Virus record (IMG/VR): IMGVR_UViG_3300037524_000424
Coordinates: 13,609-77,608 of that record
DNA: 64,000 nucleotides
Strand: one strand, 5' to 3'
Source of the DNA: a virus
Lineage: Duplodnaviria > Caudoviricetes
Shown here: positions 13,312-53,565 of the stretch, piece by piece
How positions within the stretch are numbered: position 1 is the first letter of the stretch
Layout of the letters: the number at the start of each line of letters is the position of its first letter
Made by a program: the position numbers and the translations under genes
Notes under the pieces: generated by a model
Seen by the model: the letters and a program-made list of their open reading frames with translations, nothing else
What the model was told of the DNA's origin: nothing
The model's database searches: none

Positions 13312-13710
13312 ATGAAACTAACAGTCCAGGACATCCTCACTTCAGGAGGCAAATATCCAGACCGTGCCAAGTCTCCCGAACTCACTGCCGAGCTAGAGTT
13401 TAACGCCCAAATGCTATGCGACCGCCTCAATATGCTGTTTGAAGAACTAGGGATAACATCCTGGAAGATTTCTTCAGGATTTCGTCCTCTAGCCGTCAAT
13501 AAGAAAATCGGTGGAGCAACTAAGTCCGCTCATACCCAATGTCAAGCAGTCGATTTCGTAGGTCAAGACATCGGCAAAAAAGTGGCAGCACGACCTGAAT
13601 TGCTGAAAAAATATGGATTGTGGCTGGAAGATTTGAGTGCTAGTCCGACATGGACCCATTTGGATATAAAGCCTAGAAGACCTAGAGAAATACAGATATT
13701 TAAGCCGTAA
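13312..13710 (+). CDS. peptidase M15A-like (candidate endolysin)
   Basis: SGFR...VNKKIGGATKSAH...AVDF...WTHLD zinc-peptidase motifs. Confidence 0.8.
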   Translation: MKLTVQDILTSGGKYPDRAKSPELTAELEFNAQMLCDRLNMLFEELGITSWKISSGFRPLAVNKKIGGATKSAHTQCQAVDFVGQDIGKKVAARPELLKKYGLWLEDLSASPTWTHLDIKPRRPREIQIFKP

Positions 13711-48406: not shown

Positions 48407-48646
48407 TCATCGTTTACACTCCACGACGTTATAGATTTCAGCATCCCTTACCTTCAGCATAACTCGGTAATAGTCATTCCCATCGACTGGGATAAATCCA
48501 GTCTCATGAATTAGGACAGTCACGCTATCCAGTTTAACGCAAGTGCCGACTGGTATCTCCCTGAGTTGTTGAGGAGATAGGGCGAAGGCATTGAGAGGTA
48601 GTAGCAATAGGATTAGTTTTATCATTTGTAACATCCTTTTCGTCAT
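48407..48646 (-). CDS. small secreted protein (GxC...C family)
   Basis: Signal peptide ending AFA; PVGTCV...VVEC. Confidence 0.55.
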   Translation of the reverse strand: MTKRMLQMIKLILLLLPLNAFALSPQQLREIPVGTCVKLDSVTVLIHETGFIPVDGNDYYRVMLKVRDAEIYNVVECKR

Positions 48647-48803
48647 TATAGCATAATTCTGTTACGATGACAACTCCAACATTGACCACTTTTCGGCAAA
48701 AACGGTTATTATTTGAATCTCCCACTAGGGAGAAAAACACAGTCTATTCCACAAAACTATGACATAATCTCCCGTTGGGGAGACTTAGTGCCTACTTAGT
48801 GCC

Positions 48804-49355
48804 TTATATCCTAACGAGTCCTAACTCCTCCAGCATATCAAAATACAACGCTACCTTCGTGTCCCGGTATTTCGGACTGTTAGGAATACCCCAGGCATCT
48901 TTCTCCTTAATATCTACAGCACTAGCAAATCCTAGGAAGTTCACTTGATGTCTCCCCATATCGACTATACAGAATACTAACCAATCTCTAGGAGTAGGTC
49001 TGCGGTATAGAGGGTCTGACTTCTGGAATAACCAGCTTATGCCATGCCGTTGTGAGGACTCTAAAGACTGCGACTTAACGTGAAAGTCGAAGGAGTCGGA
49101 CTTTAGGTCGGCAGAGAAGGATTTACGTTCTTTGGTGTATAGGGTAAAGTCGGGAGAGGATAACGAAGGGTCGATGTTGGAGTAGACTCGGTGAAAACAG
49201 ATTTCTCCTAAAGCTCCGACGATAGTATCTTCGTTTATTTTGGAAGGACGGGATTCTCCTCGGCTGGAGTAGATGCCGAAGGACGTTGCCGTTCTTCGGA
49301 CTGCGAAGGTTTCAGCTAGGGAGAGGTCGGAGGGAGTGAAGGAAGTTGAGGTCAT
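48804..49355 (-). CDS. restriction-endonuclease-like PD-(D/E)XK protein
   Basis: GALGEICF, PD, ADL, HVKSQ pattern. Confidence 0.5.
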   Translation of the reverse strand: MTSTSFTPSDLSLAETFAVRRTATSFGIYSSRGESRPSKINEDTIVGALGEICFHRVYSNIDPSLSSPDFTLYTKERKSFSADLKSDSFDFHVKSQSLESSQRHGISWLFQKSDPLYRRPTPRDWLVFCIVDMGRHQVNFLGFASAVDIKEKDAWGIPNSPKYRDTKVALYFDMLEELGLVRI

Positions 49356-50041
49356 TCGTTACCGTCAATTAATTCTTTCAGGACGTTTCTTTTCGATTTC
49401 AGATAGTATTTCTCAAACTGAGATAAGTCAAGCAAATTCTCGAATATCTCCAGCGTATTCCAGACTCTTTTCAACAGTCGTTCCTTATTCTCGTCATTCT
49501 GCCATTTATCCGCCAGTTTCAAGCTATCGTTTACATCGAAGTAAACGTAAATCTTATCTCCTTCTCGAAAGTCTTCTCCCTCTAAAGCATCCAGGACTTT
49601 CTGTTCGTTAGTCCGTTCTGGATTCATTACTGACTTAGTGATGGTACGTTTGGTAGACCAACGGGATATGTCGGTAACGGTTTGGGATTCGACGATATAG
49701 GATTTGTATATCTCCTGGATTTTGAATAGAGAGTTGTCGTCCAGCATTACTTTGATAATACGTTCTATCATTTCTCGTAGTGCAGTTTCTCTCTTTGAAT
49801 CTGTAAAACCGGACCCCTTGATTTTAATCTTTCCATCCTTTTCTAGGATATAATTTTTTGCTTTATTAACTATAACGGTTTGATAATATCCATCATCTTC
49901 CATTTTAATTAAATCAGGAAGAAAATCGTTTATCTCTTTTAACAGTTTTTCTCTTTCTTCTTTAGTTATTTCGGACATATCTTTTTTACAAAAAGAGATA
50001 CTATCGGTGTCTACAACATTTATTATAAAATCATGTACCAT
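49352..50041 (-). CDS. polB: family B DNA polymerase, C-terminal fragment
   Basis: NVVDTDS motif C, KNYIL, IKGSG; own SD AAGGA and ATG. Confidence 0.85.
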   Translation of the reverse strand: MVHDFIINVVDTDSISFCKKDMSEITKEEREKLLKEINDFLPDLIKMEDDGYYQTVIVNKAKNYILEKDGKIKIKGSGFTDSKRETALREMIERIIKVMLDDNSLFKIQEIYKSYIVESQTVTDISRWSTKRTITKSVMNPERTNEQKVLDALEGEDFREGDKIYVYFDVNDSLKLADKWQNDENKERLLKRVWNTLEIFENLLDLSQFEKYYLKSKRNVLKELIDGNE

Positions 50042-50946
50042 TTTTTATCCTTTTTCTTAACATAGAAATTATATTTTGTATGATTGTTTCTTTTTCCTAA
50101 TATTACCTGGTTAATATGAGAAAGACAGTTAAAGTTTAATTTTTTAAACAATTGTTTTAGGCTAAAAAATCTACCAACTAGATTATTATCATTTTTAAGA
50201 TAAACGTCAATATGGTCGTATTTTTGTGAATAGTGGTACCTTTCTTTGGTAAAAAAGTCCTCTGGTACATTATTAAGATAACATATAGATAGATTGTGTT
50301 TTTTAATTGTCTTAGACCTTCCCATTAAAACGTCACATATTGTTGATGGTGCGATTCCTAATTTTATAGAGGCATCAGTTAGTGATTCATAATAAAACCC
50401 ATTTGTATCAATTAATGATTTTTTGCTTTCCTCTATTGATGTCTTTAAACTAGAGTGACGATTGAGTCTTAATGCAGTTTCTCTCATTCTTTTTTTAGTT
50501 TCTTCATTGCGCTTTGATCCGATCCTCTTGCGAAGTATTTTTTCACGTTGTTCTTCTTTCCATGTCCCTCCGTAGTTATAGTGATTCTCTCCTTTTGGTC
50601 TATCCCACTCTGCCATTTTTTTCTTAGAAGCAGCAGAATGTTTTCTTCCTTCCATCGGAGCTTTGGCATCCTTTGCTATATTATATTCGGGCTTATACTT
50701 CTTTAGGTATACATTTTCAATTCGCAATCTATTCTCCCTGGTACATTCTTGTATTATACCATAAATAAAAGAAGATTCCCCATATTTATTATAAGCATAA
50801 TTTAGGTGTTCGTTATGATGTTTATTCTTTCTGAGGAAGTTAAAATGTGTATTCATTCTTTTCTTAAAGTCAACAGTACTTCCTATATAAATATTACCAT
50901 TCACTACATTCTTAATCATATATACAGCACAAATCTTAAAAGACAT
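50023..50946 (-). CDS. GIY-YIG homing endonuclease with NUMOD3-like repeats
   Basis: AVYMIKN...IYIGST..FKKR...H; GRKHSAASKKKM. Confidence 0.85.
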   Translation of the reverse strand: MSFKICAVYMIKNVVNGNIYIGSTVDFKKRMNTHFNFLRKNKHHNEHLNYAYNKYGESSFIYGIIQECTRENRLRIENVYLKKYKPEYNIAKDAKAPMEGRKHSAASKKKMAEWDRPKGENHYNYGGTWKEEQREKILRKRIGSKRNEETKKRMRETALRLNRHSSLKTSIEESKKSLIDTNGFYYESLTDASIKLGIAPSTICDVLMGRSKTIKKHNLSICYLNNVPEDFFTKERYHYSQKYDHIDVYLKNDNNLVGRFFSLKQLFKKLNFNCLSHINQVILGKRNNHTKYNFYVKKKDKKWYMIL

Positions 50947-52693
50947 CCTTATACCTTTCGTCCTTTTCTATATCATAATCTTTCATATACTCTTGCACGT
51001 CCTTTCCTGAAGCCCACAATAAACACATTCTGATGATCTGCCTCCCGATACCGGTGATTCTATCTCCTGCTCTAAAATCATTAAAATTTAGTCCACTACA
51101 GGAGAGCATCCCAAAACTTGAATTAGCAACCACTTTTGATGCAGCTTGTAAATCGTCATAGTATTTATCCCCGGTCTTTTTAAACATATTCTTTTCCTCA
51201 ATTCTCTTGAGTGTAAAATGTTCCACTATTTTCGGATAATACTTCTTTACGTCCTTTCCTTCTGGATATATCTGAAATGCTCGCATAATACTCGGATACA
51301 TAGACTGTACGTCAACTTTAAAAACATTCTTGTAAATCCCGGGAACTCCAAATGATATGCCGCCATGGACATATTCTCGTTCACTAGCCAACGGTATTGA
51401 ATGATTATCCTGCAAGTATGCCCTAACCATCATGCTGTTCAACCAAGCCCCACTAGCCGATTGAGTTACCGTTTGTAAAGGTTTCGGAATATATGAAGTC
51501 AAGTAAAAAAAGCTCGGGATCATTAACTCGAATAGCCGCAGCGAATCGTCAGAATCCCCTGAGCAATACTGTTTGAACCTATCCCAGTCGGCTTTCTCTT
51601 TAGGTAAATTCTTATACAAGTCCATCGGACTGATTTTCTCAAAGTCCCAAAGAACTCTATCTTCCTTCTGCCAACCCAAATGTTGAATGATGCCCTTCAG
51701 TTTGTAGTTCGGAAAGTTGCGGCTAACGTCATACTTTAAAGCTAACATCCAAGTGTCGATTATTTCTCTACCGTGAACGAAACATTTCGTATAGTCGTAG
51801 GACTGGGAACCGTCATAACGAATCTTGCTCGGCTTCTTATCAAAAGTAATCCTACTTCCATCTCTGCCCAACTCTAGTCCCAATAATCCATTTAGTTCCG
51901 CCCTGGTATTCAAATATGGTATGTCAAACGAAACGACGTTATGTCCTATTAACAGACTTGGATTCTTCTCGTTTACCCAACGAATCCAGGACTTTAGCAT
52001 AGCCCCTTCATTTCCCTTAAAGTCGTCAATAGCGAACAACTTCCTCTCTACCTTATCCCCGCATTTGTAGGTATTGCTTATCATAAAGACTAAAGCATCG
52101 TGGTCGGTCGGGTTAAGTCCGCTAGTCTCAATATCGAAACTTAGGGCACTAACCTCGTCTATCTTCATTCCCTTAAACAACGTATAACCATCCTTAATCA
52201 TGGCAGACTCGACATCGTTATGGACTACATAGAAGGTTTCCCGGTCACGGAAAGTAGTCATTCTGCTCTTATTGAAACTCTCGAAGTCAGGATATTCCTT
52301 CATAAATCGATAATGAAGACTTCCCTCTAGCTCCCGATAGGAAGTCCTGGGTCTATCGGATGATAAAATCCAGCGTTTAAGGGGTCTAACAACCGTTTTA
52401 ATGAGTCCTGGGGACTCCTCTATGTAAAGGTACAGCTCCGAGTCTCCAGCGGCTATAGAAACGATTTTCTCGGTCTGGTCTTTGCCGTAGATAAGAGTGT
52501 CGTATTTAGGGATAATCTCGGACAATAAATCCAGAAATTCTGGGGGTATAATCGCCTCGTCTCCGTCGCTAAAAGATAAAGTTCCGGAATTATTGGATCT
52601 AATGTAATAGCAACCGTCCTTAACGTGGGTTTTCAGTTTATCTATTTCTTCGGTATTGTTAACTTTGAATAGCACAATTCCCCCTATAGTCAA
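50936..52693 (-). CDS. polB: family B DNA polymerase, N-terminal fragment (exonuclease, motifs A and B)
   Basis: FDIETSG, HNVVSFDIPYL; VDVQSMYPS; KVVANSSFG; stops before motif C. Confidence 0.9.
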   Translation of the reverse strand: MTIGGIVLFKVNNTEEIDKLKTHVKDGCYYIRSNNSGTLSFSDGDEAIIPPEFLDLLSEIIPKYDTLIYGKDQTEKIVSIAAGDSELYLYIEESPGLIKTVVRPLKRWILSSDRPRTSYRELEGSLHYRFMKEYPDFESFNKSRMTTFRDRETFYVVHNDVESAMIKDGYTLFKGMKIDEVSALSFDIETSGLNPTDHDALVFMISNTYKCGDKVERKLFAIDDFKGNEGAMLKSWIRWVNEKNPSLLIGHNVVSFDIPYLNTRAELNGLLGLELGRDGSRITFDKKPSKIRYDGSQSYDYTKCFVHGREIIDTWMLALKYDVSRNFPNYKLKGIIQHLGWQKEDRVLWDFEKISPMDLYKNLPKEKADWDRFKQYCSGDSDDSLRLFELMIPSFFYLTSYIPKPLQTVTQSASGAWLNSMMVRAYLQDNHSIPLASEREYVHGGISFGVPGIYKNVFKVDVQSMYPSIMRAFQIYPEGKDVKKYYPKIVEHFTLKRIEEKNMFKKTGDKYYDDLQAASKVVANSSFGMLSCSGLNFNDFRAGDRITGIGRQIIRMCLLWASGKDVQEYMKDYDIEKDERYKDVF

Positions 52694-53146
52694 TTACTCC
52701 TTAATCTTTCCGCCTGGTGTACGCTTGAAATGTGTTGGTTTCTCAAACTTCTTCTTAGTAGAAACGTAATTCTTAGTAACACCGCTAGTATTTTCCACTA
52801 GCCGGTAGTCATTCATTGCGTTGTAAACTGTAGCGTGACCTAGCCCAGTCTTTCCTCCCATCATATCAAACTGCTTTTTAGTCAACCGCACTTTAACAGG
52901 ATGATACTTCCGCTTTTCAACGTCGAAGTACATCCCGATTAGGTTGACACTAAGTTCTTGGTCGCTCAAGTCTTTAGTGTCCTGGATTATATTTAGCAGT
53001 TCATCCTCATTCTCGTTTACAGTAGCATTAAATCCTTTGTACGGTAGTCCTGCCTGAGTTAGGATGTCAATCATTTCTTGTGGGCTAAGTCCGTACTCTC
53101 TTGCTAGTTCGTAGACCTTTGGTTTTTCTGCTATATACTTACCCAT
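52694..53146 (-). CDS. IF2_N-domain protein
   Basis: KVYELAREYGLSPQEMIDILTQAGL...ATVNENEDELL matches the translation initiation factor IF2 N-terminal repeat. Confidence 0.7.
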   Translation of the reverse strand: MGKYIAEKPKVYELAREYGLSPQEMIDILTQAGLPYKGFNATVNENEDELLNIIQDTKDLSDQELSVNLIGMYFDVEKRKYHPVKVRLTKKQFDMMGGKTGLGHATVYNAMNDYRLVENTSGVTKNYVSTKKKFEKPTHFKRTPGGKIKE

Positions 53147-53154
53147 AAATGCTC

Positions 53155-53565
53155 CTAGAAGTCTAAGCCTACGTTTAGTAAAAAGGACTCGTTGCTGATA
53201 ACGGTAACTCCAGCACTAAAGTCATCTGATAACAGTCTAGTGTAGTTTGCTCCAAAAAGCAACTCTTTTTTGACCGCAAACTTCTTATAGGTGTCTCCGT
53301 TAGTGATGTGTAGTTTATGTGATGGACCAATTCCTGTTAGTAAACTAAAACGGTTTAACTTCTTAGAAGGCTTGACTGCCCCTCTAGTGACTACCTTATG
53401 CTTGTTAGCACTAAAAGCGTAAGTTTTTCCATCCCGAGTTTTGACTGTTATTTTAGCATTACGCAACTCTTCTGGTGTTGGGTATGCGTATAATGTTGTC
53501 GAAAGTAAAAATAAGAATATCGCTAATTTCATATAACCTCCGAAAGTAAATTTATAAGTTAACAA
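53155..53565 (-). CDS. secreted outer-membrane beta-strand protein
   Basis: Signal peptide; amphipathic strands; ends LNVGLDF. Confidence 0.55.
   Translation of the reverse strand: MLTYKFTFGGYMKLAIFLFLLSTTLYAYPTPEELRNAKITVKTRDGKTYAFSANKHKVVTRGAVKPSKKLNRFSLLTGIGPSHKLHITNGDTYKKFAVKKELLFGANYTRLLSDDFSAGVTVISNESFLLNVGLDF

Follow-up and report, generated by a model that had tools for sequence, protein, structure and literature searches.

A Family B DNA Polymerase Probably Made as Two Polypeptides, With a Free-Standing GIY-YIG Endonuclease Gene at the Break, in an IMG/VR Phage Record

Introduction

How is a family B DNA polymerase (PolB) made when its gene is broken between the two catalytic aspartate motifs, and did the endonuclease gene that lies in the break cause it? 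The question is raised by a locus in a 64,000-nucleotide (nt) stretch of Caudoviricetes DNA, hereafter the window, which covers positions 13,609 to 77,608 of IMG/VR record IMGVR_UViG_3300037524_000424. The source record is 77,608 bp and its completeness was estimated at 91% by CheckV. Three consecutive open reading frames (ORFs), all on the minus strand, encode an N-terminal polymerase part (polB-N), a GIY-YIG homing endonuclease (the homing endonuclease gene, HEG) and a C-terminal polymerase part (polB-C). The locus is best explained, with a confidence that is high but short of firm, as encoding a two-polypeptide polymerase with a selfish HEG at a hot-spot loop, the break probably being older than the HEG copy now present. 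This layout is of a known kind. Its break point differs from the published case of Aeromonas phage 25, and the split is a widespread polymorphism in the clade.

Locus Organization

The genes, motifs and junctions are as follows, with positions counted in the window and lengths in amino acids (aa).

52693..50936, minus strand: polB-N, 585 aa from TTG 52693 (ORF list, Pfam, motif script)
51313..51290, minus strand: motif A, DVQSMYPS, first catalytic aspartate, N subunit (script)
51136..51110, minus strand: motif B, KVVANSSFG, N subunit (script, alignment)
50936..50946, minus strand: 11-nt overlap of polB-N and the HEG; the HEG ATG (50946-50944) is upstream of the polB-N TAA (50938-50936)
50946..50023, minus strand: free-standing GIY-YIG HEG, 307 aa (Pfam, PHROGs, family alignment)
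50052..50048, minus strand: Shine-Dalgarno sequence AAGGA of polB-C, inside the HEG, 6 nt before the polB-C ATG
50023..50041, minus strand: 19-nt overlap of the HEG and polB-C; the polB-C ATG (50041-50039) is within the final HEG codons
50041..49352, minus strand: polB-C, 229 aa, beginning MVHDFIINVVDTDS (ORF list, alignment to contiguous relatives)
50011..50000, minus strand: motif C, DTDS, second catalytic aspartate pair, C subunit (script), residues 11-14 of polB-C

The coordinates of the three ORFs, the overlaps and the placement of the motifs in a preliminary description of this DNA were correct by the ORF list and motif script, and the Shine-Dalgarno sequence that it had claimed for polB-C is real. 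Owing to the overlaps at both ends the insert contains no non-coding bases. The HEG is read in the +1 frame relative to polB, while polB-N and polB-C are in one frame. The G+C content falls over the insert in a composition profile. Read-through, frameshifting or bypass across the insert was considered and is ruled out by 41 stops in the polB frame over 894 nt.

Expression signals were searched for in the region. The Shine-Dalgarno region of polB-C did not fold above shuffled sequence (z +1.27), and no regulatory hairpins of the sort reported in fractured genes were found beyond shuffled controls at the start of the HEG or of polB-C. A promoter and terminator scan of the region gave fewer promoter-like sites than shuffled sequence. 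One sigma-70-like site, TTGACG-17-AATAAT (10/12), lies at 50210..50182 on the minus strand in the 3' part of the HEG, approximately 140 nt upstream of polB-C. This site is indistinguishable from chance and may be a chance match.

The TTG listed as the start of polB-N (52693) abuts the stop of the upstream ORF and lies 3 nt past an AAGGAG sequence. GTG 52675 is preceded by GGGGGA and aligns to Met1 of the closest homologue, P0002. By this alignment GTG 52675 is probably the true start rather than TTG 52693.

Polymerase Domains and Motifs

The Pfam matches of polB-N were DNA_pol_B_exo1 (1e-15) and a partial DNA_pol_B (4e-8). All three exonuclease motifs were located in it by script: ExoI (FDIE) at aa 186, ExoII (NVVSFD) at aa 252 and ExoIII (YCSGDSDD) at aa 376. 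D461, Y466 and P467 of the motif A region are invariant in the family alignment. polB-N is comprised of the N-terminal domain, the 3'-5' exonuclease, the palm with motif A, the fingers with motif B and a 25-residue tail past 'WASGK'. polB-C had no match in Pfam or PHROGs. It aligned to the C-terminal parts of contiguous relatives with identities ranging from 40 to 59%, and holds the remaining palm (motif C and the KxY motif, the latter present as KAKNY by script) and the thumb. The complete set of PolB motifs (Exo I-III, A, B, C and KxY) is reached only by the two chains jointly.

Residues 225-555 of polB-N align to residues 183-523 of Pfu PolB, which places the break in the short stretch from the last palm helix to the motif C strand. 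An AlphaFold2 model of a contiguous relative, L006 (829 aa), had a mean predicted local distance difference test score of 90.3. The model has a palm helix at 527-549, a linker at 550-582 and strands at 583-588 and 592-597 flanking DTD. The minimum of local confidence in the linker (80) is at 571-580. By this model the break is predicted to sit in a loop at the surface, which connects the final palm helix ('..GRQIIR..WASGK') to the motif C beta-strand. In PolB structures one sheet of the palm contains both the strand of motif A and the hairpin of motif C, and the two chains would therefore have to interlock for an active site to form.

Comparison With Split and Contiguous Relatives

The polB-N search gave 1,952 homologues and the best 120 clusters were classified. 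Among these best 120, 64 end 48-83 aa past motif B without motif C and 56 are contiguous. Many of the 64 sit on contigs of 40-124 kb. An IMG/VR profile scan yielded 80 loci, and 78 contigs could be classified by script. The polymerase is split at the identical loop, approximately 10 residues before DTDS, in 31 of the 78. The other 47 are contiguous, 29 with a motif B-to-C spacing of 52 and 18 with a longer linker (75-142). The comparison with uninterrupted alleles that the preliminary description had proposed could be made on these 47 contiguous relatives and two contiguous outgroups, set against the 31 split contigs.

The cistrons are adjacent or overlapping with no insert in 19 of the 31 split contigs; homologous GIY-YIG genes occupy the break in five, HNH genes in three and other ORFs in four. 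The split C halves begin a few residues before the '[HY][ND]F-x-[IL]..DTDS' strand. All of them keep DTD[SAG], and the majority are equipped with an ATG and a Shine-Dalgarno sequence of their own. Throughout the phage clade this loop is a hot spot, in which endonucleases of at least two unrelated classes reside.

A phmmer search with polB-C against 1.84 billion representatives gave 356 matches. The best 149 were classified as 65 stand-alone halves starting 5-26 aa before DTDS, 53 contiguous polymerases and a remainder of fragments. Stand-alone halves resembling polB-C probably carry 'hypothetical protein' labels throughout public data.

The nearest cultured relatives are Salinibacter phages, at 29%. 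A tblastn search with polB-C against cultured phages returned nothing at 1e-5, so the clade has no cultured model. The nearest cultured outgroups, Salinibacter phage M8CRM-1 and Nostoc phage YongM, are both contiguous with a spacing of 52, and the short contiguous form is therefore taken as ancestral. The ancestral junction is the short 'WAxxKGF-xIVNADTDS'. A quick maximum-likelihood tree built from the N halves showed a scattered distribution of the split state, with 14 changes needed and at least 11 forced by well-supported branches. Split forms and long-linker contiguous forms share a 'WA[TS]GK..YW..' tail and an 'HNF' head, and the short contiguous forms have neither. This sharing would fit a junction that spread horizontally, or a gene that split and re-fused repeatedly.

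The HNH genes at the same split were identified by PHROGs and are unrelated to the GIY-YIG class. They lie at L026:7469-8011, L047:3579-4163 and L057:7643-8245, and the L047 and L057 proteins are 58% identical to each other. Unrelated inserts were also seen at the split site of two sisters with an N-half nonsynonymous divergence (dN) of 0.18, at L054:7511-7852 and L056:2548-3201. The L056 insert is a GIY-YIG endonuclease, and that of L054 is a 113-aa ORF without a family match. The polB flanks of L054 and L056 by the junction gave no blastn match to each other (word size 7, E 1e-3). A decay series from L056 (GIY-YIG) through L054 (113-aa ORF) to L062 (no insert) was considered and rejected, the L054 ORF being unlike the L056 endonuclease at both the DNA and the protein level.

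Three contiguous relatives, L016, L017 and L044, have a motif B-to-C spacing of 142 with an insert of approximately 90 residues in the loop that is split elsewhere. It may have arisen by re-fusion of a split junction or by insertion of a domain in frame.

A Probable Two-Chain Polymerase

Purifying selection acts on both polB halves. In eight sister pairs with both members split, the ratio of nonsynonymous to synonymous substitution rates (dN/dS) was 0.10-0.44 in both halves, with the corresponding ratio of proportions (pN/pS) used where synonymous sites were saturated. No family A polymerase (PolA) and no second PolB locus was found in the genome record, which is 91% complete.

These results bear on whether polB is a pseudogene killed by the insertion, with replication carried out by a host polymerase or another enzyme. 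Only the interruption itself would suggest this, and a second polymerase might fall in the missing part of the record. Both halves are nevertheless full-length with every catalytic motif present, both are under purifying selection in split lineages, the split arrangement is retained in dozens of lineages, and the record contains neither PolA nor another PolB. A dead polB is very unlikely on this evidence. Since the same break is kept in dozens of phages, with the halves intact and under purifying selection, the polymerase would have to work as two chains. The two-subunit polymerase assembled in trans, proposed in the preliminary description, appears well supported by this comparative evidence of dozens of split relatives, purifying selection and the presence of only one polymerase.

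In the proposed mechanism a unit of three translationally coupled cistrons, polB-N/HEG/polB-C, would encode the single family B polymerase as two polypeptides. The N subunit would contribute the exonuclease, motif A and the fingers, and the C subunit motif C, KxY and the thumb. The active site would form only on non-covalent association of the two. The contiguous short form would be ancestral, with the split state recurring over the tree and persisting without the HEG. In this lineage the break probably predates the present HEG copy or came ready-made with it.

Evidence Against RNA and Protein Splicing

A single full-length polymerase could still be restored if the insert were spliced out of the message or if the polypeptides were joined. 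Rfam was scanned over region 48500-53500 at E<=10. No intron model was found, including RF00028, and the only matches were three chance snoRNA-like ones. As a positive control, the same scan recovered the group I intron of Aeromonas phage 25 43B with 64.2 bits and an E value of 3.6e-15. No group I intron was found by Rfam in 12 insert-bearing related loci, and neither HEG junction folds better than shuffled sequence.

On the splicing explanation the insert would be an intron, of group I or another type, that carries an endonuclease ORF, and its removal from the RNA would rebuild a single polB message. The shared frame of the polymerase halves agrees with this, as do the proposed exon ending in U and the insert ending in G, and introns of this type do occur in phage polymerase genes such as phage 25 43B. 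The Rfam scan, its control and the unstructured junctions all speak against it. So does the insert itself, which lacks any non-coding base; the only possible ribozyme site would be the C-terminal extension of the HEG, and this is a protein module common to homologues. Relatives are split with overlapping cistrons, differing frames and no insert, and none has an intron. An intron at this locus is extremely improbable. The description of the insert as endonuclease coding sequence without a ribozyme core agrees with these results, and trans-assisted splicing, which had been regarded as remote, was set aside.

Excision of 50039..50944 (906 nt) yields ...K-D-V-H-D-F... in one frame. The arithmetic of this excision, noted in the preliminary description, is right, but it carries no evidential weight as all three frame relations between the halves (offsets 0, 1 and 2) occur among related split loci. 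The U that ends the exon and the G that ends the insert were put forward as fitting a group I rule, but any ATG would satisfy this rule by chance. The ancestral allele has the short junction given above, not the 'seamless' KDVHDF one.

Protein splicing was considered because a free-standing GIY-YIG gene between gene halves is a hallmark of 'fractured genes' (PMC2677866), where split-intein halves on the two pieces, here those of polB, would trans-splice into one chain. A split intein was taken to need an N-intein of approximately 100 aa and a C-intein of approximately 35 aa or more, with nucleophiles. In the window only about 25 residues follow 'WASGK' in polB-N and four precede 'HDF..DTDS' in polB-C, and both extra stretches align to linker residues of contiguous relatives. 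There was no Pfam match to a Hint/intein domain at the locus and the junction has no Cys/Ser/Thr nucleophile arrangement. Trans-splicing of this kind has almost no probability here.

Origin of the Break

The insertion had been thought to have split the gene. The closest relative of polB-N, P0002 (57% identity, 578 aa), ends at the same place as polB-N. In L003 (46-49%), the nearest relative represented by DNA, the gene is split and its halves are separated by a 32-nt spacer that contains no endonuclease gene. Because these closest relatives are split without a HEG, the present HEG copy probably did not create the break in this lineage. The polB-N tail, 'DY..KD..KY', is common to the HEG-free split relatives P0007-P0009 and to contiguous L006, and so it was not created by this insertion.

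Composition points to a more recent arrival of the HEG. The G+C fraction at third codon positions (GC3) was 0.26 in the HEG and 0.21 over codons 1-90 of polB-C, compared with 0.46 for the remainder of polB. The 90-codon piece differed from the rest of polB (Fisher p=3e-6) and not from the HEG (p=0.41). Its nearest relatives are two loci that bear GIY-YIG genes, L056 and L041, whereas for the gene body the nearest is L003. One further feature is defined by GC3 and similarity:

49772..50041, minus strand: AT-rich head of polB-C, first 90 codons (~270 nt), probable co-conversion tract

By these comparisons the HEG appears to have been imported recently as AT-rich DNA, together with the opening ~90 codons of polB-C. 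In the likeliest history, the HEG with ~270 nt of downstream polB homed or recombined into a gene that was already split, or a ready-made split junction was imported. The HEG would most likely cut polB alleles that lack it, near the region coding for motif C, and repair of the cut would copy the HEG in together with flanking polB sequence. This cutting and copying is suggested by the composition and the mosaic similarity.

The alternative is that this GIY-YIG insertion broke a contiguous polB in a direct ancestor, and that the N tail and a new start codon arose then. Three observations fit: the HEG occupies precisely the gap and provides polB-C with its Shine-Dalgarno sequence and start context, the family was contiguous ancestrally, and the scatter of the split on the tree indicates that new breaks do arise. 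The split of P0002 and L003 without an endonuclease gene, the presence of the N tail in P0007-P0009 and L006, and the recent composition of the HEG argue against this origin, which is judged rather unlikely.

A tentative further idea, possible though doubtful, is that the junction is itself a mobile 'gene-splitting cassette'. The cassette would contain the HEG along with the N tail ('WA[TS]GK..YW..'), a stop, a ribosome-binding site and start, and the C head ('M..[HY][ND]F'). Homing into a contiguous polB with a short linker would then make a working two-subunit enzyme in one step and the imported peptides would dock. Loss of the HEG at a later time would leave adjacent cistrons, and re-fusion would give the long-linker forms (spacing 71-144).

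Some points weigh against a two-chain polymerase whose break is older than the HEG copy. Association of the subunits in this phage and its relatives is deduced from sequence. The probable co-conversion tract is based on composition and on similarity over a short segment, at 55-59% identity. The GC3 drop in the upstream flank was not significant (p=0.11), and AT-rich flanks were found in several related endonuclease-bearing loci and not in all, so that the pattern is partial. The tree is a quick search on N halves, which may themselves be recombinant.

The Endonuclease Gene

The HEG product matched GIY-YIG (6e-11), NUMOD3 (5.9e-6) and an I-HmuI NUMOD-like domain (2.4e-6) in Pfam, and was assigned to 'homing endonuclease' by PHROGs. 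It is made up of a catalytic domain, NUMOD3 and two helix-turn-helix-like DNA-binding modules. The second of these modules is an 85-residue C-terminal extension which is common to P0122, P0125 and P0129. Residues Y9, Y20, G22, R30, H34, H43, E77 and N89 are invariant across 13 family members, and the HEG retains every family-invariant catalytic residue. It is present as a single copy in the genome. With its catalytic residues intact and in single copy, the HEG may still be active.

The family includes 42 database homologues, the closest at 39-48%, and seems to be tied to this polB site. Presence of the HEG is polymorphic at this one site: homologues with 37-47% identity to the HEG of the window occur at the polB split in L011, L039, L041, L043 and L056, and the gene is absent from more than 70 related loci. 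In these five loci the endonuclease stop is always inside the first polB-C codons. The start of the endonuclease gene and the stop of polB-N form either ATGA or an overlap of 11-23 nt in relatives. As a selfish, free-standing element, the HEG is distinct from both introns and inteins.

A database gene call, P0121, starts the HEG at Met10 (298 aa; window 50919-50946) which would remove the first 'GIY' strand. The family alignment favors the ATG at 50946 over Met10.

Comparison With Known Systems

Aeromonas phage 25 has the order 43A - GIY-YIG seg43(25) - 43B (Petrov, Ratnayaka & Karam 2010, as cited in PMC2988022 and PMC2677866; NC_008208). The 43A and 43B halves are described in PMC2988022 as co-purifying and active. 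Gene 43 of phage 44RR is split without an endonuclease gene, according to the accounts in PMC2988022 and PMC2677866. Phage 25 and the window are alike in having a two-cistron family B polymerase with a free-standing GIY-YIG gene between the cistrons. In both cases a HEG-free split relative exists, and the HEG as cause of the break is equally unclear. The break is elsewhere, however. In the phage 25 record 43A is 498 aa, has only motif A and ends approximately 95 aa past DLTSLYPS, and 43B starts 46 aa before KILINSLYG. The phage 25 polymerase is therefore broken between motifs A and B, in the fingers, whereas that of the window is broken between motifs B and C, in the palm, 10 aa before DTDS. 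For this reason gp43A/gp43B, cited earlier as a precedent, is not an exact one. An untranslated spacer and, within 43B, a group I intron further set phage 25 apart; the locus in the window lacks both. The two endonucleases have only the catalytic domain in common (24% identity, E 0.016), and phage 25 is T4-like while the clade of the window is not.

In phage Aeh1, nrdA is split by mobE, a case described as 'genes in pieces' (Friedrich et al. 2007; Crona et al. 2011, PMC3045599). The two parts of NrdA come together with no splicing step, possibly helped by short peptides located at the break (PMC3045599). As in that case, the window has contiguous relatives, two intact ordered cistrons and an endonuclease ORF in its own frame. 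Aeh1 differs in the protein, a ribonucleotide reductase rather than a polymerase, and in the endonuclease, which is HNH rather than GIY-YIG. The Aeh1 case is a single known lineage, whereas the split in the window is a clade-wide polymorphism.

Fractured genes with split inteins were described from environmental phage-like DNA (Dassa et al. 2009, PMC2677866). Those genes and the window share the order half, free-standing GIY-YIG gene, half, with overlapping frames. The fractured genes carry split-intein halves and the window does not, so protein splicing is not expected. Free-standing endonucleases of the T4 seg and mob type show intronless homing with co-conversion of flanks (PMC2988022, PMC2330249). 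By analogy co-inherited flanks would be expected in the window, which likewise has a GIY-YIG gene with NUMOD and helix-turn-helix modules between conserved genes.

The PolB catalytic domain of Methanobacteriales is on two genes, both required for activity (Kelman, Pietrokovski & Hurwitz 1999, as cited in PMC4104785 and PMC2677866). The origin proposed for this split, in the account of PMC4104785, is erratic intein loss. The system is archaeal and cellular with no endonuclease gene between the halves, whereas the window is from a phage and has a HEG there. Its subunits are approximately 586 and 223 aa, resembling the sizes in the window. Split polymerases whose halves are separated by small uncharacterized ORFs are reported for OM43 phages (PMC10580990). 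No paper describing the break in the present clade was found.

Implications

To judge from this locus, a replicative family B polymerase can withstand a break placed just 10 residues ahead of the catalytic DTDS hairpin. The two catalytic aspartate motifs are then on different chains, an arrangement that arose or was passed on repeatedly within a single clade of phages. Such a clade is a natural comparative set, with dozens of contiguous, long-linker and split versions of the polymerase and a loop that holds GIY-YIG, HNH or nothing. It can be used to ask how homing endonucleases fracture essential genes without lethality, whether peptides at the junction came in as docking elements, the role suggested for Aeh1 NrdA, and where polymerases can be split for engineering. 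For annotation, 'truncated' PolB proteins of 500-600 aa and unannotated ORFs of ~230 aa without a Pfam or PHROG match, when met in phages of this sort, would be the two subunits of one enzyme.

Other Observations

Three ORFs (78, 120 and 183 aa) lie between the polB halves at L035:7427-8562, and the last encodes a DUF6939 protein. By its annotation this insert appears to be cargo other than a recognizable endonuclease. The metagenome scan with the P0001+P0002 profile gave three distant loci, of which L083 and L084 are contiguous and L085 is a short fragment. In the split relative L064 two tRNA genes are located immediately downstream of polB-C (L064:7205-7355).

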